A program made the translations under genes and the position numbers. Below are positions 27,043 through 44,919 of a stretch of 64,000 nucleotides of DNA, piece after piece. A model generated the notes under the pieces. The model did no database searches and was not told where the DNA came from. It saw only the letters and a list, made by a program, of their open reading frames with translations. Numbering within the stretch: position 1 is the first letter of the stretch; each line of letters opens with the position of its first letter. This stretch comes from an uncultured Candidatus Saccharibacteria bacterium (lineage in GTDB: Bacteria > Patescibacteriota > Minisyncoccia > Phycocordibacterales > UBA918), in NCBI GenBank assembly GCA_964493145.1, contig CAZBMV010000002.1:14157-78156 (forward strand), given 5' to 3'.

Positions 27043-27285
27043 TTAATAATTCCGATATGTTTTCTCATTTCTTAAGGAAACCTCTAGAATCTCAATGTCA
27101 TCGTGTAATTGTCTGAAGATAATTCGTTTACTACCAACTCTAACGCGGTAGATATCACGATACCCCTTCAGCTTCTTGATATCATATTGTTCTGTTCCTT
27201 GTTCAATAATATCAGCAATCACCCTAGCGAGCAGAATTGATTCCGCTTTTGAGAGTTTTCTAAGAAATTTGTCAATTTTATCCAT
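27043..27285 (-). CDS. Type II toxin, RelE/ParE family
   Basis: 80 aa with a C-terminal …YRVRVGSKRIIFRQLHDDIEILEVSLRNEKTY typical of RelE/ParE. It overlaps the upstream antitoxin by 8 nt. Confidence 0.7.
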   Translation of the reverse strand: MDKIDKFLRKLSKAESILLARVIADIIEQGTEQYDIKKLKGYRDIYRVRVGSKRIIFRQLHDDIEILEVSLRNEKTYRNY

Positions 27286-27529
27286 TGAGCTTTTTAAGTC
27301 TCTTGAGGATCTCTTTTCCGCTCACTCCTCGTGGATTAATCTCCGTAAAATCAATAATGGTTTCCCAACCCATTTCCTCTTCATCAACCGGACTAAGGCG
27401 GAAGATGGGACGATTGCGGCGCATCACGGTTATGGACTCACCCTTATCAACACGAGAAATGTATTTTTCCATGTTCTCACGGAGTTCCTTGAGTCCAACC
27501 ACTTTGAGTTTTGCGAGTTTTGTATTCAT
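27278..27529 (-). CDS. Type II antitoxin, Phd/YefM family
   Basis: 83 aa and Phd/YefM-like (…ESITVMRRNRPIFRLSPV…). It lies immediately upstream of the toxin and overlaps it. Confidence 0.65.
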   Translation of the reverse strand: MNTKLAKLKVVGLKELRENMEKYISRVDKGESITVMRRNRPIFRLSPVDEEEMGWETIIDFTEINPRGVSGKEILKRLKKLNG

Positions 27530-27625: not shown

Positions 27626-28105
27626 ATGGAATCAGGCGATATTATTTCATTTCTCAAGGAATCCATTTTCACCGTTACGGTGTTCTCGGTTTTTCTTGTG
27701 TACGCCATGGCGAAGGGGCGCTACGCGCTCGTCAATGTTATTTTTGCGCTGTACCTCGCGCTTCTCGTTTCAATCAAATTTCCATACTTTAGCAATGTCG
27801 TGGGTGGGGGAGGGCAGAGCGGTGCGATGACAAAAATTCTCATTTTCGCCGGCTTTACCGTACTCGGCATTATGCTTTTCAGACGTCACATACCGGGTGA
27901 CGACTACGAGCCTGCATTTCATAAATTGGGCATGAAGGTGCTCCTCGCCACCATGGCGACCGTGCTCGTCATGGCGTACAGTTTTCACGCACTCCCGGTG
28001 ACGGAAATACTCACACCCTCAACACCGATTCAACACCTCTTTGCTCCCGAACAGCACTTCTTCTGGTGGCTCATCCTCCCACTCGCGGTCCTCTTCTTTG
28101 TGTAA
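27626..28105 (+). CDS. Small integral membrane protein (about 5 TM)
   Basis: Hydrophobic 159-aa ORF directly upstream of the CofE-like gene. Confidence 0.4.
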   Translation: MESGDIISFLKESIFTVTVFSVFLVYAMAKGRYALVNVIFALYLALLVSIKFPYFSNVVGGGGQSGAMTKILIFAGFTVLGIMLFRRHIPGDDYEPAFHKLGMKVLLATMATVLVMAYSFHALPVTEILTPSTPIQHLFAPEQHFFWWLILPLAVLFFV

Positions 28106-28111
28106 TTCCTC

Positions 28112-28831
28112 ATGCTGATCAAACCGATCAAAACATCACTTTTCAATATCAATGATGATCTATTTTTATTCATCACAAAATATATTAAAAAATTTAACGA
28201 GTATGACATACTCGTTATAACATCAAAAATTGTTGCCCTCTCTCAGGGGTGCGTGATTCCACACGATTCGTATACCAAGTATATGAATACCGTCTCAGCC
28301 CATTCAGTGAAGACGCCATGGGCGATACTCACGCTCACGAGTGAAGGGTGGTGTATTAATGCAGGTGTCGATGAATCTAACGTACGGAATGGCTACGTTA
28401 CACTGCCTGAAAACCCTTTTGAATATGCTCACATCCTGAGGAAGCGACTTAGGAAAAAATACGGTCTTAAAAATCTCGGTGTCATTATCACCGACACTCG
28501 AAGTGTCCCGCTTCGAGCCGGAACCGTTGGTCGCGCTATCGGCTGTGCCGGTTTTCATCCCCTCAAAAGCTACATTGGTAAAAAAGATTTGTTTGGGCGA
28601 AAGAGCAGAGTGACGGTGAGCAATAATGCCGACGCACTCGCGACCGGTGCGGTCTTCGTCATGGGCGAGGGAAGTGAGCAAACACCACTTGCGGTCATAC
28701 AAAATGCCCCGGTGAGATTCACTCAAAAAAAATTACCGAAAAAGGAAACACGCCTCTTTCTTCTCCCACGCGAAGATATTTTCACGTACCTATACAGAGC
28801 GCCTCGGAAATACCTCAAAGACACTCCATGA
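28112..28831 (+). CDS. CofE-like gamma-glutamyl ligase family protein (F420-0:gamma-glutamyl ligase fold)
   Basis: ILVITSKIVA…NAGVDESN…GVIITDT pattern and a length consistent with the F420_ligase family. Assigned by motif recall only. Confidence 0.5.
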   Translation: MLIKPIKTSLFNINDDLFLFITKYIKKFNEYDILVITSKIVALSQGCVIPHDSYTKYMNTVSAHSVKTPWAILTLTSEGWCINAGVDESNVRNGYVTLPENPFEYAHILRKRLRKKYGLKNLGVIITDTRSVPLRAGTVGRAIGCAGFHPLKSYIGKKDLFGRKSRVTVSNNADALATGAVFVMGEGSEQTPLAVIQNAPVRFTQKKLPKKETRLFLLPREDIFTYLYRAPRKYLKDTP

Positions 28832-29245
28832 GGAAATGTTGGTGTCGTACACTATCGTATAATCAACCGGCTCGTCCCACGATTGCCGTGTGAGAGTCTC
28901 TTTATCCTTAAACGATTCGGACGTTGCAACCCCGATGCGCACCCACTCCTTTGGAATAAGGGAAAGGAATCTGTCATACCACCCACCGCCACGTCCGTGG
29001 CGGGTGCCGTAAATATCAAAAGCCGTACCTGGTAGGAAGACACACACATTTTTCTTGTGTCCGAGTATTGCAGTGCACGTCTTCACCCACGTAACAACAT
29101 CCGCCTTCGCATCACATGGGATGACCAGCGTATCTTCTATATGTGTTATCGGAGTGTACTGGAGCGGATCAATCTCATCAAAATGTGGTGTGTACAAAAT
29201 TACACCCGTACACAATGCGAGTTCAGGAATATCAGCGCGAAGCAT
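28790..29245 (-). CDS. 5-formyltetrahydrofolate cyclo-ligase family protein
   Basis: LPGTAFDIYGTRHGRGGGWYDRFL matches the conserved 5-FCL motif. Confidence 0.65.
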   Translation of the reverse strand: MLRADIPELALCTGVILYTPHFDEIDPLQYTPITHIEDTLVIPCDAKADVVTWVKTCTAILGHKKNVCVFLPGTAFDIYGTRHGRGGGWYDRFLSLIPKEWVRIGVATSESFKDKETLTRQSWDEPVDYTIVYDTNISSWSVFEVFPRRSV

Positions 29246-29302
29246 GAGGATACTATACAAAAAAATGCCATGGGTGGGAACCCACGGCATTCACCGGTAC
29301 AC

Positions 29303-30313
29303 CTAGGAATCAAGGCTTTTGAGTATCTTGGTGTACAACGCTTCAACAATCGCTTGTTGCTCCTTGCCACTACGCGCGTAATGATCGAGGCCGGGTGCCG
29401 CGTTAATTTCGAGGACCCAGTACTTCTTTGGCTCCATGGAAATATCACCATGGATCATGAGGTCGACCCCGCAAAGCCGAAGCCCCATGTCACGCGTAAG
29501 CGATATGGCAATATCACGAAACGCGCGATGTACCACACTCGTCACATCGACTGATTCGCCACCGGAGGAAAGGTTCGCATTATCGAGAAGAAACACTTGC
29601 TCTCCTTTCAAAATGACACTCTCGGGAGAGTAGCCACTTCGCGCGAGCTTTTCTTTGATGCGCGAATCATCAAACGCAATCTGTGTATCGCGCTTTGCCC
29701 GAGCGAACTCTTGTTGCTTCTTGAGGAGAAGCTCGCGTACCGTCATCTTTCCGTCACCCGTGACAGAGAGCGGGATACGCTCGTACGCAGAAATAATTTT
29801 TCCATCGAGAACCACAATGCGATAATCCTTCCCGGATACCGGCTTTTGCACGAGCACAATACGATCATCCTTGAATGCCGCTCTCATCGCTTTATAGAAT
29901 CCTTGCTTCGTGTGGACAAGTACCACACCTTTTCCCTGGCTCCCGCTGTTGGGTTTCACGATGACCGGAAAGCCGAGTTGTTGCGCATGCCTGTACGCAG
30001 CATCAATTCCTCGATTGGTAACACCGATAACCTTTCCCCAATCATCTCGGAAAAACGTTTTGCTTCCGGGAACAACAGGGTACCCCATGCGTGCCATAAA
30101 GAAATTCGCGTAATCCTTATCCTTCGCGATATCAGCGGCACCAACAGGATTGAGGTCAAGTGAATTGTACCTAAAGTACGACCGTTTGCCGCTCTTGAAG
30201 GTGATTTGCCCGGCAATGCGCCACACAGGCTCAAGGAGAACCCTTGCACCAATCTGCAGTGCCACCTTTTGAAGTACCTTTCCAAGTACAAGTGATTCGT
30301 GTTTCTTTTTCAT
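29303..30313 (-). CDS. RimK-family ATP-grasp alpha-L-glutamate ligase-like protein
   Basis: PVIVKPNSGSQGKGV and …CGVDLMIHGD…WVLEINAAPGL are ATP-grasp RimK/CofF/MptN-type motifs. Confidence 0.7.
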   Translation of the reverse strand: MKKKHESLVLGKVLQKVALQIGARVLLEPVWRIAGQITFKSGKRSYFRYNSLDLNPVGAADIAKDKDYANFFMARMGYPVVPGSKTFFRDDWGKVIGVTNRGIDAAYRHAQQLGFPVIVKPNSGSQGKGVVLVHTKQGFYKAMRAAFKDDRIVLVQKPVSGKDYRIVVLDGKIISAYERIPLSVTGDGKMTVRELLLKKQQEFARAKRDTQIAFDDSRIKEKLARSGYSPESVILKGEQVFLLDNANLSSGGESVDVTSVVHRAFRDIAISLTRDMGLRLCGVDLMIHGDISMEPKKYWVLEINAAPGLDHYARSGKEQQAIVEALYTKILKSLDS

Positions 30314-30493
30314 GATTTCCTCCGTGATGTGATAGTACTGTAATGTACGAATTTACTTTGTAAAAAATGACACATGTAGCAATAAAAATCAAGCACTTTC
30401 GGTAATGTGCAAGCACATTACCGAAGGCACTGGACAAGTGTGTATTTTTATGCTAAAATACATATAATTTGATCTTTTCATAGGAGGTGTAAA

Positions 30494-31096
30494 ATGTGCA
30501 GCCAAAAAGGTGTGGCTGCCACGTTTGCAGCCTTCGCAGTACGTGTCACCCGCGTCTGGAATGCCTTCTTCGGTATCCAGTCGCACGACAGTAACACGAA
30601 AGCCGGCTACAAAGTCGGCAAGATAATAGCCCAGCGCGTCATCTACACAATGGCGGACTACTGGCTCATGGCTTTGTCTGCGGCATTTATCATTGTCGTG
30701 GACAAAGCACTCGGCTACGAGTGGTTCGGCCTATTCATGGCGATGTGGGGATTTGACATCGTCGTTGCGTGCGCCTTTGTTGCAATCTGGACACGCACGG
30801 GAGAGGACGTCACGCTCGGCGAGAGTTATCGCCGAGCGGCAGATGCCATTCATGCAGAGTCCCGCATTGCGGGATACCTTGCAATGGCAGGTGTCTGCAT
30901 CAAAGCGTCGTTCTGGGATGGTCCGGAGCATATTGTCATCTTCTTTCACAAGGAGATTGGCAATGAGGGACGAATGCTTGCTGTTCTCCTCGCGCTCACG
31001 GCAATTCAGGCGGCAATCTGGACTCCTGTCTACGTACTGGGGTTTGATACCGCCTCAGAACTCTTCACGCACATTATGAACACGTACGTGAGGTGA
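30494..31096 (+). CDS. Integral membrane protein (about 5 TM)
   Basis: Strong RBS (AGGAGGTG) 6 nt upstream, a TATAAT-like -10, and a 10-bp hairpin in the leader. Confidence 0.45.
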   Translation: MCSQKGVAATFAAFAVRVTRVWNAFFGIQSHDSNTKAGYKVGKIIAQRVIYTMADYWLMALSAAFIIVVDKALGYEWFGLFMAMWGFDIVVACAFVAIWTRTGEDVTLGESYRRAADAIHAESRIAGYLAMAGVCIKASFWDGPEHIVIFFHKEIGNEGRMLAVLLALTAIQAAIWTPVYVLGFDTASELFTHIMNTYVR

Positions 31097-31126
31097 CGGC
31101 CGACGCAGAGTTACATACTCGCCGAC

Positions 31127-31156
31127 CCACGGTCGGCGAGTTTTTTATTCCCACGC
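31127..31156 (+). terminator. Rho-independent terminator
   Basis: CTCGCCGACC-CACG-GTCGGCGAG hairpin followed by TTTTTTATT. Confidence 0.6.
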
Positions 31157-31216: not shown

Positions 31217-31990
31217 ATGAACACCGCAAAATTTTTTACCAATCCAAACGACGCCGTCGCCGAGATTCAGCGCCGACGAAACGACACCGATCTGCGACAA
31301 CGAGTCGCCGATTTTTTGAATGGTGACATTCCCGAGCACTTCAGCGGCGACACTCCCATTCTCTACCTCGCACGCCACGTGGTAACACCGAGCCATGAGA
31401 CGCTCAAGTTCATTGAGAAGGCACAGCCACTCGGTCTCCCCATCGTGCTTGGACAAGATGTAAAAGATAAATTCGTTTCAAATAACTCAATGAAACGCAC
31501 CCTTGGCAAAATGCCTGTCGTGAAGGGCATCTCACGAAACACCGACGAAATTATTGAGCATTTCACCGTGATTGATTTTGACGACGCACAAGGAAAACCC
31601 TTTTGCGAAATTATGACAAAAAACAACGGGAGTCTCGTTGAGTTACACACATCACTCCTGAGGGAAATTTATCCAACCGGAATTACCATTGTAGATGAAT
31701 CGGAGTGGATAGACAGAAATGGACGTGGAAACATTCTAGAACACTACAAAAGATTTCTCACACTCTTCCTCGCACACGGTATTATGTATGAAACGTACAT
31801 TCTTGAGGATCACTACTTCGTAAAGCAGGTACTTGAGCCGGCGGTCGCCTTTGTGGAAGAAACGTTTGGGTACAAACCCCTCATCTGCGAACTCATACCA
31901 AATAGGGATATCGGAGAACGCAACTGGGACGCCTACCCGAGCGTTCTCTATGCCCGTATTAAGAACATGCTCACGGGTGACAAGAAATAG
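31217..31990 (+). CDS. Unknown-function protein, paralog A of a three-member family in this window
   Basis: It aligns with the ORFs at 35613 and 36397 in several conserved blocks, e.g. LAHGIMYETY / VAHGVLFETF / VAHGVAFENL and VEPA…FG.KPLI. This copy has native (~50%) GC. Confidence 0.5.
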   Translation: MNTAKFFTNPNDAVAEIQRRRNDTDLRQRVADFLNGDIPEHFSGDTPILYLARHVVTPSHETLKFIEKAQPLGLPIVLGQDVKDKFVSNNSMKRTLGKMPVVKGISRNTDEIIEHFTVIDFDDAQGKPFCEIMTKNNGSLVELHTSLLREIYPTGITIVDESEWIDRNGRGNILEHYKRFLTLFLAHGIMYETYILEDHYFVKQVLEPAVAFVEETFGYKPLICELIPNRDIGERNWDAYPSVLYARIKNMLTGDKK

Positions 31991-35612: not shown

Positions 35613-36404
35613 ATGAGTACGTGTATGGAAAATATCTATTTGTCGCTGGATGAAGCTCGTGAAAAATTGAGAGAGCGGTGGAATGATGTTGAACTCAAAA
35701 GCAAAATTGAAAATGAATTAGGGGATAAATTTATCCAGCAATACTCAAGTGGTCCCCTTGGTATCACCACGCGACAAATAATATCCGCCGACAACGGTTG
35801 TTCTTTTTTAGACTACGCCGCTCATTACATTGGTGCTAAACCATGTGCACAAGAATTTTATGGTGATAAATTCGTTCATTTTAACGAAGAAAAGAAGGGT
35901 CTTGGCAGACTCAGAATCACGCTTAATACTGGAGAGTATGCAACGATTGATTGTATGGATTTCCACGCTTGTGAAAAAAAGAAGTTGATTGACTGTCAAC
36001 TTAAATCAGGCGAATCTCTTGTTGAGTTTCATCATGAACTTCTTGCAATAGACAATATAGGCATTGAGTATTTTGATAATACAAATTGGTACCATTCAAT
36101 CGGTCATGCGACAGATTATTATTATTACATGCTACTACATTTTGTCGCGCACGGTGTTCTCTTTGAGACATTTTATGACGAAGGAGGAACGACAGAGGAT
36201 GAGTTTACACACAATGTGGTATACCCAACGATTAACAGAATCCACGAAAAATTTGGTTTGATGCCAATGCTTATCAGAGCATACCCTGAGCACCAAAGTG
36301 ACGAAGAGGATTTTTACTGGTGGAATCACAGTAATAATGTCAACAAATGCATTATTGAATATGCATTAAAAAATAATCTTGAAATCAAAAAAGTATATGT
36401 ATGA
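35613..36404 (+). CDS. Unknown-function protein, paralog B of the three-member family
   Basis: AT-rich (~38% GC). It aligns with paralogs A and C. Conserved blocks include KKGLGRLRI and the His-rich segments FHHEL and HFVAHG. Confidence 0.5.
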   Translation: MSTCMENIYLSLDEAREKLRERWNDVELKSKIENELGDKFIQQYSSGPLGITTRQIISADNGCSFLDYAAHYIGAKPCAQEFYGDKFVHFNEEKKGLGRLRITLNTGEYATIDCMDFHACEKKKLIDCQLKSGESLVEFHHELLAIDNIGIEYFDNTNWYHSIGHATDYYYYMLLHFVAHGVLFETFYDEGGTTEDEFTHNVVYPTINRIHEKFGLMPMLIRAYPEHQSDEEDFYWWNHSNNVNKCIIEYALKNNLEIKKVYV

Positions 36405-37155
36405 AATATCTAACATTCATCTATCCCTTGATGATGTGCGGACCCAATTAAATCACAGGTGGAATAACGTTGATTTGAGAAAACAAATTGAAGACGAGCT
36501 CGGCGAGTATTTTATGCCGCAGTTTAAAAGTGTACCTCGTACAGTTTCTTTTAGACAAATATGTACTCCAGATCATGGGTTTTTCTTTTTTAATTATGCC
36601 TCCAAATATGTGGGGGCACAGCCACTCGTTCTTGAATACCATGATGATTTATTTGTATCACTAAATGAGGAGAAGAAGGGACTTGGTCGGCTTCGTATCG
36701 TAAATGAGAATGGTGCATGCACAACACTTGATATATTGGACTTTCATGAAAATGAAAGGAAAAAACTTTCAGAGTGCAAAACAAAGCAGGGTGTTAATCT
36801 TGTAGATTTTCATCATGAGCTTTTTAAGGTTTCAAATACTGAGATTGAACTTTTAGATAACTCAAAATGGTTTAAGGCGCAGGGTTCTGCATCTGACTAT
36901 TACTACAATTTGTACCTACACTACGTCGCTCATGGTGTTGCGTTTGAAAATTTATTTGATGAGACGGAAAGTGGAATAAATTTTCTTAATAATATTGTTG
37001 AACCAGCCATTGAACGAATTTATTCTAAATACAATCTCAAACCTCTCATTGCTAGACAGTACCCAACTAATCAAAACGATGCCGAAGATTTCTACTGGTG
37101 GTCCTATCCATCACGTATAAATGATTATATAATTAAAATGAGTCCAGCAAATTAA
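36397..37155 (+). CDS. Unknown-function protein, paralog C of the three-member family
   Basis: Its ATG overlaps the stop of paralog B by 8 nt. It ends 1 nt before the histidine kinase start. Confidence 0.5.
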   Translation: MYEISNIHLSLDDVRTQLNHRWNNVDLRKQIEDELGEYFMPQFKSVPRTVSFRQICTPDHGFFFFNYASKYVGAQPLVLEYHDDLFVSLNEEKKGLGRLRIVNENGACTTLDILDFHENERKKLSECKTKQGVNLVDFHHELFKVSNTEIELLDNSKWFKAQGSASDYYYNLYLHYVAHGVAFENLFDETESGINFLNNIVEPAIERIYSKYNLKPLIARQYPTNQNDAEDFYWWSYPSRINDYIIKMSPAN

Positions 37156-43851: not shown

Positions 43852-43974
43852 ATTATTAGTACAGTATTTGGTACACATACGATAGAGATTAACGGAGGTC
43901 CGGCTTCCGTTACCATTGTTTTGAGGAAATACTTCTGCCTTTTGCTCTTTGCGTTGATTTGGTACTATTTCCGT

Positions 43975-44919
43975 ATGAACAAAAAACGACTATTTACGGG
44001 GTTGCAACCATCGGGTGCACTTCACATTGGAAATTATTTTGGTGCGCTTAAGCCATTCAGAGACGCCTCGGGTGAGTATGAGAGTTTTCTCATGATTGCA
44101 AATCTCCACGCACTCACGACAATGCGCGATGGGAACGCGCTCCGAGAAAATACATACAATGTCGTGCGCGATTACCTCGCCGCAGGAATTGACCCGAAAG
44201 AGGTAACCATCTTTTTGCAATCGGATGTCCCTCAGCACACCGAACTCGCGTGGGTCTTTGAGTGTCTCGTCACGGTGCCTTTCCTCATGCAGGCGCACGC
44301 GTATAAGGATAAAGTCGCGAAGGGACTTGAGGCGAACGCCGGTCTCTTCAACTATCCGATGCTCATGGCGGCGGACATCCTTCTCTACAATGCAGATGTG
44401 GTGCCTGTCGGCGAAGACCAGCGTCAGCACGTTGAGTATGCGCGTGAAGCGGCAACGAAGTTTAACAATGCGTACGGTGAGACCTTTACCACACCACAGG
44501 AACTCATTTTGAAGAGCGTCGGCATTGTGCCGGGGACTGATGGTCAGAAGATGAGCAAGAGTTACAAAAACACCGTACCGCTTTTTGGAACAAAGGATGA
44601 AATAGCGAAGGCGGTGATGAGTATTGTTACCGACTCCGCGGGTGAACGGCCTGAGAACGTATGCGCAATTCACAAACTCTTTAGAGATGAAGAAAGCTTG
44701 GAGGTACTCTACGCAGAAAACGCAGGAAAGTACAAAAATCTCAAAGACGCACTCATTGAAGACATTGAGACAGTGGTCGCACCAATGCGAGAAAAGAGAG
44801 AGGGTATAACAGATGAGGATGTACGCGGAGTCCTCAGTAACGGAGCGGAACGAGCACACGCAATTGCATCAAAAACAATGCGCGACATCCGAGAGAAAAT
44901 TGGCATTTCGCTCCACTAA
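43975..44919 (+). CDS. trpS: Tryptophanyl-tRNA synthetase
   Basis: GLQPSGALHIGNYFG (HIGH-type motif) and KMSKS. About 314 aa from MNKKRL. Confidence 0.9.
   Translation: MNKKRLFTGLQPSGALHIGNYFGALKPFRDASGEYESFLMIANLHALTTMRDGNALRENTYNVVRDYLAAGIDPKEVTIFLQSDVPQHTELAWVFECLVTVPFLMQAHAYKDKVAKGLEANAGLFNYPMLMAADILLYNADVVPVGEDQRQHVEYAREAATKFNNAYGETFTTPQELILKSVGIVPGTDGQKMSKSYKNTVPLFGTKDEIAKAVMSIVTDSAGERPENVCAIHKLFRDEESLEVLYAENAGKYKNLKDALIEDIETVVAPMREKREGITDEDVRGVLSNGAERAHAIASKTMRDIREKIGISLH

Follow-up and report, generated by a model that had tools for sequence, protein, structure and literature searches.

CofF is an ATP-grasp gamma-F420-2:alpha-L-glutamate ligase, that is, an enzyme which caps the tail of the cofactor F420. 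Other ATP-grasp ligases extend the glutamate tails of other cofactors, i.e., MptN with methanopterin and MyfA/MyfB with methylofuran (PMC8141765). In Chlamydia a COG1478 homologue of the gamma-glutamate ligase CofE, CT611 or FolC2, was predicted in 2007 to replace FolC (PMC1971073; PMC4161248), and a folC mutant of E. coli was shown to be rescued by CT611 (De Crécy-Lagard et al. 2007, PMC1971073; PMC4161248). The legend to Fig. 5A of that 2007 study also names 5-fcl among the genes of a folC2/pqqC-like clustering panel (PMC1971073). Considered here is a locus found within 64,000 nt of contig CAZBMV010000002.1, from an uncultured Candidatus Saccharibacteria bacterium, with the whole of that stretch referred to as the window. 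The letters A through E are used for the five open reading frames (ORFs) of positions 27626-31096, all of which are present exactly where a prior sequence-only reading had placed them. Of particular concern are B, a CofE-family protein, C, a 5-formyltetrahydrofolate (5-formyl-THF) cyclo-ligase (5-FCL) family protein, and D, an ATP-grasp protein. On balance, though with confidence only slightly better than even, positions 28112-30313 may be viewed as the core of a Patescibacterial cluster for folate salvage and retention, one in which B would supply gamma-linked glutamate, C would recycle 5-formyl-THF, and D would ligate onto the tail. What is new here is D, i.e., a conserved, folate-linked ATP-grasp ligase.

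D (29303-30313, minus strand; 336 amino acids, aa) is a stand-alone ATP-grasp carboxylate-amine ligase, one belonging to the branch that is made up of the CphA1 G domain and GshAB. The sequence-only reading had it instead as a RimK-family ATP-grasp ligase. The ATP-grasp portion of that call holds, with D matching PF08443, the RimK-like ATP-grasp domain, at 58 bits over a cut-off of 21. The family portion does not, however, as the RimK/CofF/MptN family models fail, that is, TIGR00768 for RimK (67.4 < 143.4), NF007764 also for RimK (40.6 < 331), and NF040720 for MptN (49.9 < 350). Any resemblance of D to RimK or CofF thus is at the superfamily level only. The best NCBIfam matches are to the ATP-grasp region of cyanophycin synthetase, at 178 and 176 bits, and to GshAB, at 148 bits, with Ddl models reaching 40-47 bits only. 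Comparison with PDB sequences similarly returns CphA1 (7e-29) and next GshAB and CphA2, with RimK and Ddl near 1e-7, and Foldseek, as run with an AF2 model of D (pLDDT 73.7), returns CphA1 at 6e-19, GshAB at 7e-19, and RimK at 1.6e-11. Relative to E. coli RimK there is, as well, an insertion in D of approximately 60 residues (about 181-240), which corresponds to the G-omega module of CphA1/GshF.

What D represents is the G-domain part of CphA1 alone, lacking the N domain and lacking also the Mur-ligase-like M domain. Residues 59-328 of D thus match positions 207-472 of the 862 positions of the CphA1 model, TIGR02068, at 176 bits versus a cut-off of 850. Because the G-domain part alone is present, the name ‘cyanophycin synthetase’, under which homologues of D are found at NCBI, is an over-annotation; the JGI name for these homologues is ‘D-Ala-D-Ala ligase-like’. 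Conservation of D is uncommonly high, with 3199 matches in total and with more than 120 Patescibacterial clusters at 65-82% identity. Ten longer proteins were examined from among the 150 best 50%-identity representatives, and in none of the ten is PF01996, the CofE domain, fused to D; these longer proteins are instead tandem ATP-grasp proteins or combinations of ATP-grasp with acylphosphatase. In the literature that was searched, no publication was found on this folate-linked ligase, on an ATP-grasp enzyme that is linked with folC, or on this protein or cyanophycin synthetase as found in the Candidate Phyla Radiation (CPR).

Residues of D were mapped to those of TeCphA1 using the PDB-search alignment, with residue roles as described in PMC9427784. 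The ATP-binding K261 of TeCphA1 corresponds to K120 of D, the acyl-phosphate-stabilizing R309 to R165, the Mg ligand E450 to E302, and the oxyanion residue G456 to G308. N452, to which N304 of D corresponds, also is among this set of ATP/Mg ligands and acyl-phosphate Arg, and all five of these residues are invariant across the D family. R323, which contacts the side-chain carboxylate of the incoming Asp, is R179 in D, and N394 and S396, of the large loop which positions the incoming amino acid (N394-L-S396-x-G-G), are N247 and S249. Two positions have changed. These are H267 of the P-loop, which is Q126 in D, and R458, which in TeCphA1 contacts the alpha-carboxylate of the incoming Asp and which in D is D310. 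With this Asp, D has a ‘PGLDHY’ motif, which resembles the ‘PGLEG’ of RimK. As the catalytic residues are kept, D therefore should be a competent carboxylate-amine ligase, and most likely it is an acidic amino acid that is used. Reading the substrate of D directly from its active-site residues was considered as well and was rejected, these residues being common to CphA1 (Asp), RimK (Glu), and GshAB (Gly).

B (28112-28831, plus strand; 239 aa) is, as the sequence-only reading had proposed, of the CofE family, matching PF01996 at 143.2 bits versus a cut-off of 25 and with its top PDB match being CofE 2g9i (E = 3e-25). Its best curated model, however, is not one of CofE as such but instead is TIGR04132, ‘putative folate metabolism gamma-glutamate ligase’, at 168.7 bits and essentially over the full length, residues 1-224 of B aligning to positions 1-230 of the 241 of that profile. 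The CofE equivalogs both fail (TIGR01916, 141.5 < 180.65; NF009809, 136.1 < 274), with alignment of TIGR01916 restricted to residues 72-210 of B. The same is seen with five other Patescibacterial CofE-like proteins, which score 187-242 bits with TIGR04132 versus 116-162 bits with CofE models. Invariant across the B family are the motifs NAGxDxSN, ITDT, and MGEG, which are metal and nucleotide motifs of CofE, and which we take to supply the equivalents of the CofE Mn and GTP ligands D109, D150, T151, and E208. The residues of Af-CofE that hold the isoalloxazine ring of F420 are F92, G153-C155, and R234 (PMC10861534). Those residues are not kept in B. A conserved W70 is found instead of F92, CofE GRC153-155 is replaced by an S-V/I/L-P that is invariant in the B family, and the C-terminal region that bears CofE R234 does not align with B. 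The genes adjoining B-family genes, moreover, are folate genes: 5-FCL, FolD, DHFR, DHFR-like, and ThyA. Profiles, motifs, and neighbours together are consistent with B being a FolC2-type gamma-glutamate ligase and a probable folylpolyglutamate synthetase.

Neighbourhoods were compared using two sets of loci, 80 genome loci as seeded with B and 80 metagenome loci as seeded with D, all from one phylum and with gene calls in these related loci (L numbers, below) being longest-ORF calls as made in this analysis. Given relatives of B of at least 45% identity (tblastn), D is the convergent neighbour of B in 23 of 23 loci, or 24 of 24 if the window is counted. In the 17 close-relative loci with at least 1.5 kb of flank, D is never more than 3.5 kb from B. 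Among those 23 loci, 5-FCL lies between B and D in 8 and beyond D in a ninth (L007), and FolD follows D in 2.

The reciprocal comparison makes use of the 32 D-seeded loci which have at least 3 kb to both sides. A folate gene is found within 3.5 kb of D in 23 of these, the genes being FolC2-like (12 loci), 5-FCL (11), canonical FolC (7; TIGR01499, 303.8 bits > 162.65), DHFR (6; PF00186, 170 bits), ThyA (4), DHFR-like (2), and FolD (1). FolC and FolC2-like genes are found together beside D in none of the 32. This alternation, which is a signature of non-orthologous displacement, supports a FolC-like function for B, and with it the suggestion, also made from the sequence alone, that B might substitute for FolC. 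That a CofE homologue can substitute for FolC is nevertheless not new, having been published in 2007 and having its own curated model.

Conservation of the neighbourhood had been raised as a check upon the cluster, and the B-D pairing does recur, i.e., with separations of no more than 4 kb in 50 independent loci, which is more than chance, and in all three orientations: 31 convergent, 14 co-directional (9 of these with a DHFR-like gene between), and 5 divergent. A folate gene thus remains beside D even as the partner of D, the orientation, and the intervening gene (5-FCL, DHFR-like, or none) change from locus to locus, a pattern which favours functional coupling of D with folate genes over inherited synteny. 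On one contig, JBBUFS010000001.1, there are two B-D pairs (L011 and L022), approximately 29 kb apart and of 78% and 80% identity, which could mean either that the pair was duplicated as a unit or that the assembly is chimeric. Distant relatives of D (35-47% identity) are uninformative, being found on contigs that are short or which lack folate context.

Other genes are seen beside distant CofE-like genes. In L024-L080 these often are a PduO-type cob(I)alamin adenosyltransferase family gene (PF01923; 15 loci) and a FemAB-like/GNAT gene (PF13480; 10 loci), with L032:10760-11323 and L078:10704-11705 as examples. Many records of metagenome-assembled genomes with CofE-like genes (L021, L028, L033, L034, L039, and others) are titled ‘uncultured Pseudomonadales’ or ‘Gammaproteobacteria’, titles which seem to be mistaken as to taxonomy.

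C (28790-29290, minus strand; 166 aa as annotated) is an N-terminally truncated member of the 5-FCL family. The sequence-only reading was correct in describing it as a 5-FCL homologue that carries a GRGGGWYDR motif and which overlaps convergently with B. That overlap is of 42 nt and is confined to the non-conserved C-terminal tails of both proteins. C matches PF01812 at 44.9 bits, with a cut-off of 27, over positions 121-184 of the profile's 186, i.e., its C-terminal third, and is below the cut-off of TIGR02727 (51.8 < 84.9). A profile of 14 members of the C family aligns to residues 69-187 of the M. pneumoniae MTHFS (1sbq), and to A. aeolicus MTHFS (1sou) from residue 39 on. Invariant in the core of the C family are Y-x-P-x3-E-x-D, PG-x2-FD-x2-G-x-R-x-G-x-G-x-G-W-Y-D-R, and WD-x-P-x-D. 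C is an optional member of the cluster, with 5-FCL found between B and D in 11 of the 31 convergent loci and immediately after D in 13 of the 80 that are D-seeded.

D and C are co-directional with a gap of 12 nt, and a terminator-like hairpin with T-tract (29263-29292, minus strand) is found between the D stop codon and the start of C. Read from 29292 to 29263, the hairpin consists of a 13-bp stem which is followed by TTTTGTATAG, and it lies directly 3' of the D stop codon. It is this hairpin plus T-tract that is translated as the first 15 residues of annotated C, and therefore the start of C probably is M16, at 29245, for a protein of 151 aa. An equivalent GC-rich hairpin with T-run follows the D stop in at least 12 related loci (L004, L008, L013, L018, L019, L021, L082, L087, L088, L090, L104, L112, L128), and this element could be a terminator or attenuator separating D from C. 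Gene callers take the hairpin for coding sequence, which gives 5-FCL a spurious extension at its N-terminus (‘...FFYI...’).

The substrates of B, C, and D, along with the linkage made by D, are what we infer from the above. B would add one or more gamma-linked glutamates to salvaged folate, in a nucleotide-dependent manner and for cofactor retention and use, and in doing so would stand in for canonical FolC. C probably converts 5-formyl-THF into 5,10-methenyl-THF, thereby bringing it back into the active pool. 5-formyl-THF is the stable form of folate which is available for salvage, and also is a by-product of serine hydroxymethyltransferase (SHMT). D in turn would partner with whichever glutamate ligase a lineage possesses, FolC2 or FolC. 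By analogy with the CphA1 G domain, GshAB, and RimK, it would phosphorylate a free carboxylate and join to it Glu or Asp, with the likeliest target being an alpha-carboxylate on the folate glutamyl tail, resulting in an alpha-linked extension or cap. The best-supported role for D is, on that analogy, extension of the folate glutamyl tail by an acidic amino acid. A more specific proposal is that D is a new, Patescibacteria-wide folate-tail ligase which acts after FolC2 or FolC in adding alpha-linked or otherwise non-canonical Glu or Asp, and this is held tentatively, as a possibility of somewhat less than even standing.

The genomic setting bears on this as well. The bacterium carrying these genes is a Patescibacterium of Paceibacteria/Kaiserbacteria-like type, with B, D, and A having their closest homologues in Kaiserbacteria, Paceibacteria, and other Patescibacteria. 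In CPR genomes folA, glyA, and folD are widespread with the de novo folate pathway missing (PMC11974145), a gene content which fits with a salvage role for the cluster. By tblastn, neither folC nor any further folate gene is found in the 64-kb window, in which B is the only CofE-like gene. A Pfam survey of its larger ORFs otherwise shows housekeeping genes only: aminoacyl-tRNA synthetases, ribosomal proteins, rpoA, and grpE-dnaK-dnaJ, along with mraY-like, ftsW, murG, glutamate racemase, and pgi.

Various observations weigh against the reading of 28112-30313 as a folate cluster with D as a tail ligase. We know of no report of alpha-linked or non-Glu folate tails for these organisms, and the active-site residues of D specify neither of its substrates. 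Coupling, too, is incomplete. Nine of the 32 roomy D loci are without a folate gene, these having miscellaneous neighbours and no rival theme, and one relative of D (35% identity) is near a LysR regulator and isocitrate dehydrogenase, with no folate context. For the more distant CofE-like loci (34-44% identity), D is nearby in just 2 of 42; of those same 42, all with enough flank, 9 have a RibD_C/DHFR-like gene within 3.5 kb and 7 have ThyA within that distance. B is under the curated TIGR04132 cut-off (168.7 < 350), a cut-off which appears to be tuned to a narrower bacterial set. C is missing the N-terminal 30-60 residues of canonical 5-FCL. COG0212, furthermore, includes paralogues which lack 5-FCL activity (PMC3223725, PMC5041015) and which are thiamin-linked (PMC3223725), so it is from folate context only that 5-FCL activity is ascribed to C.

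Different explanations may be offered for the same genes. D could be a ligase of the folate pathway which nevertheless does not cap tails, instead adding the first Glu onto pteroate (DHFS-like) or serving as an analogue of a PurT-type formate-THF ligase. The folate-gene neighbourhood fits equally with this idea, acyl-phosphate plus amine ATP-grasp chemistry suits both reactions, and FolD and 5-FCL, both of them enzymes that act on formyl- and methenyl-THF, are found along with D. D, however, is found in the peptide-ligase branch (CphA1, GshAB, RimK, Ddl) rather than with PurT/PurK, and retains both the loop and the Arg that CphA1 employs towards an amino-acid nucleophile (N247, S249, R179; PMC9427784), making this explanation unlikely. 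More unlikely is that B and D together make a folate-independent product, such as a glutathione-like gamma-glutamyl peptide or a polymer of cyanophycin-like or poly-Glu type. D would then build the backbone and B would serve as the side-chain or gamma ligase, and folate adjacency would be only a matter of shared regulation or growth-linked synteny. The nearest relatives of D do make cyanophycin and glutathione, the NCBI name for D homologues points in this same direction, and pairing of D with B, or of D with the Mur-ligase-like FolC, mirrors the pairing in CphA1 of ATP-grasp with Mur-ligase-like domains. Still, it is seven folate gene families which recur beside D or B, in several arrangements and with no other recurrent theme, D is without the N and M domains of CphA1 (again, 176 versus a cut-off of 850), and B is nearest to a folate-type model.

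It might be supposed as well that D is unrelated to either B or folate, e.g., a cell-wall or other amino-acid ligase, with adjacency simply being synteny inherited within one lineage. All of the loci indeed are from one phylum, the housekeeping genes trpS, asnS-like, dnaK, and dnaJ recur nearby too, and JGI labels these proteins as resembling D-Ala-D-Ala ligase. Yet a folate gene stays beside D despite changes in partner, orientation, and intervening gene, the two B-D pairs on a single contig are consistent with duplication as a unit, and Ddl models are low-scoring with D, which leaves this possibility the less probable again. Highly improbable, lastly, is a true CofE/CofF-style pair that builds the tail of F420 or of another deazaflavin or flavin. 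B does possess PF01996, with CofE structures as top PDB matches, and a gamma-ligase plus an ATP-grasp ligase does mimic CofE plus CofF. B nevertheless falls under the CofE equivalog cut-offs and does not conserve F420-ring residues (PMC10861534), and D fails the RimK and MptN models. No cofC, cofD, cofG, cofH, or fbiC is seen in the 64-kb window (Pfam survey of larger ORFs) or in those annotated neighbour families that recur across related loci, where folate genes recur instead. A folate rather than F420 link, towards which the sequence-only reading had leaned, is thus borne out by the TIGR04132 match of B, by its folate neighbours, and by this absence of F420 genes from the window.

If it is D that modifies the folate tail, as is preferred here, then one-carbon cofactor metabolism would gain in D a new enzyme, and the phylum may possess a distinct folate species. 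Such a chemically distinct folate would be analogous to F420 with its alpha-Glu cap or to sarcinapterin, and would be relevant to cofactor retention, to exchange with hosts, and to the design of culture media. D also would be a first gene-level example of a class resembling the alpha-folylpolyglutamate synthetase activity of E. coli, an activity known from biochemistry only. Patescibacteria are a very large and mostly uncultured radiation, with genomes that are reduced and with a dependence on cofactor salvage from hosts. Independent of that possibility, the CofE-like genes of Patescibacteria, for which the usual automatic label is ‘coenzyme F420-0:L-glutamate ligase’, appear to encode folate enzymes of FolC2 type, and folate-linked ligases are apparently what the 336-aa ‘cyanophycin synthetase’ entries represent. 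The two labels thus would be systematic mis-annotations, involving thousands of database entries.

Flanking these genes are A (27626-28105, plus strand; 159 aa), which is co-directional with B and separated from it by 6 nt, and E (30494-31096, plus strand; 200 aa). Each has 3-4 hydrophobic segments and no family match, with four membrane helices predicted for A, and as small membrane proteins they are just as the sequence-only reading had them. They are not members of the cluster, however, and their candidacy as uptake components was rejected, with A travelling with grpE-dnaK-dnaJ and E sitting in a 13.5-kb insertion. The A family consists of 159-aa Paceibacterial proteins (221 matches, 58-86% identity), all annotated as hypothetical and with an invariant H-x-P-G-D-D-x-E loop. 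No fold in the PDB matches an AF2 model of A (pLDDT 73.7; E >= 3), and A is without a Pfam match as well. In 3 of 3 other genomes examined (L161, L162, L164) the A homologue is found directly after grpE-dnaK-dnaJ, with B and D not following, and A adjoins B only in the closest relatives of the window (L001, L002, L081). A may have an accessory role in the chaperone operon. A ParE-like/Phd-like toxin-antitoxin pair (27043-27529, minus strand) is inserted between dnaJ and A; it is kept in L001 and L081 (75-89% identity) and is absent from L002 and the other genomes examined.

E looks like a real gene, as judged from a promoter-like site, a Shine-Dalgarno sequence (AGGAGGTG), an ATG at 30494, and a strong terminator at 31117-31141. 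Its relatives are exclusively of 90% identity or more, and there is no homologue of E in 160 related loci. E is part of a stretch of approximately 13.5 kb (30.4-43.9 kb) which lies between D and trpS (43921-44919), and which from about 32 kb onward drops in GC to 0.34-0.42. Also found there are F (31217-31990) and two F paralogues (35613-36404 and 36379-37155; 24-26% identity, no Pfam match), a GNAT, a Fic protein, a histidine kinase, and an LD-carboxypeptidase. About ten related loci instead have trpS abutting D directly, and the closest relative, L001, has at the identical site a different insert (RhuM/Fic), which suggests that the D-trpS interval is an integration hot spot. As for folate transport, an exporter-fold ABC half-transporter (approximately 600 aa, with 5-6 transmembrane segments plus ATPase) is found within a few kb of B-D in about 6 loci (L004, L007, L010, L013, L020, L087; mutual identity 31-44%), with no homologue in the window. 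This half-transporter might, weakly, be a better candidate than are the small membrane proteins.

How, then, does this locus compare with systems already described? C keeps the conserved core of the YgfA/MTHFS 5-FCLs (PF01812, COG0212) and shares their folate neighbourhood, though at approximately 150 aa it is shorter than canonical 5-FCLs, which are 180-200 aa. D has as its best sequence and fold matches the CphA1 G domain and GshAB (GshF), and keeps K261, R309, R323, the N394/S396 loop, E450, and G456 of the former. It differs from CphA1 in standing alone, at 336 aa, and in the replacement of His267 by Gln126 and of Arg458 by Asp310; arginine and cyanophycin genes, in addition, are absent from the D neighbourhood. 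With FolC2 (CT611, COG1478, TIGR04132) there are in common a CofE fold, folate-gene neighbours, and an organism without sign of F420. Patescibacterial members, however, score 168.7-242 bits versus the cut-off of 350, and in Chlamydia there is a folBKPA cluster for de novo synthesis, as opposed to folate salvage by the bacterium carrying B. B also is coupled to an ATP-grasp ligase, with none listed in the Chlamydia folate cluster (PMC1971073, PMC4161248). In comparison with CofF, MptN, and MyfA/MyfB, the context instead is one of folate, and D is of another ATP-grasp branch, i.e., one with the G-omega insertion of approximately 60 residues that RimK lacks. What is shared with those systems is nonetheless the basic arrangement, with B having the fold as well as the metal-binding motifs of CofE: a gamma-glutamate ligase along with an ATP-grasp ligase, which together extend or cap the tail of a cofactor.

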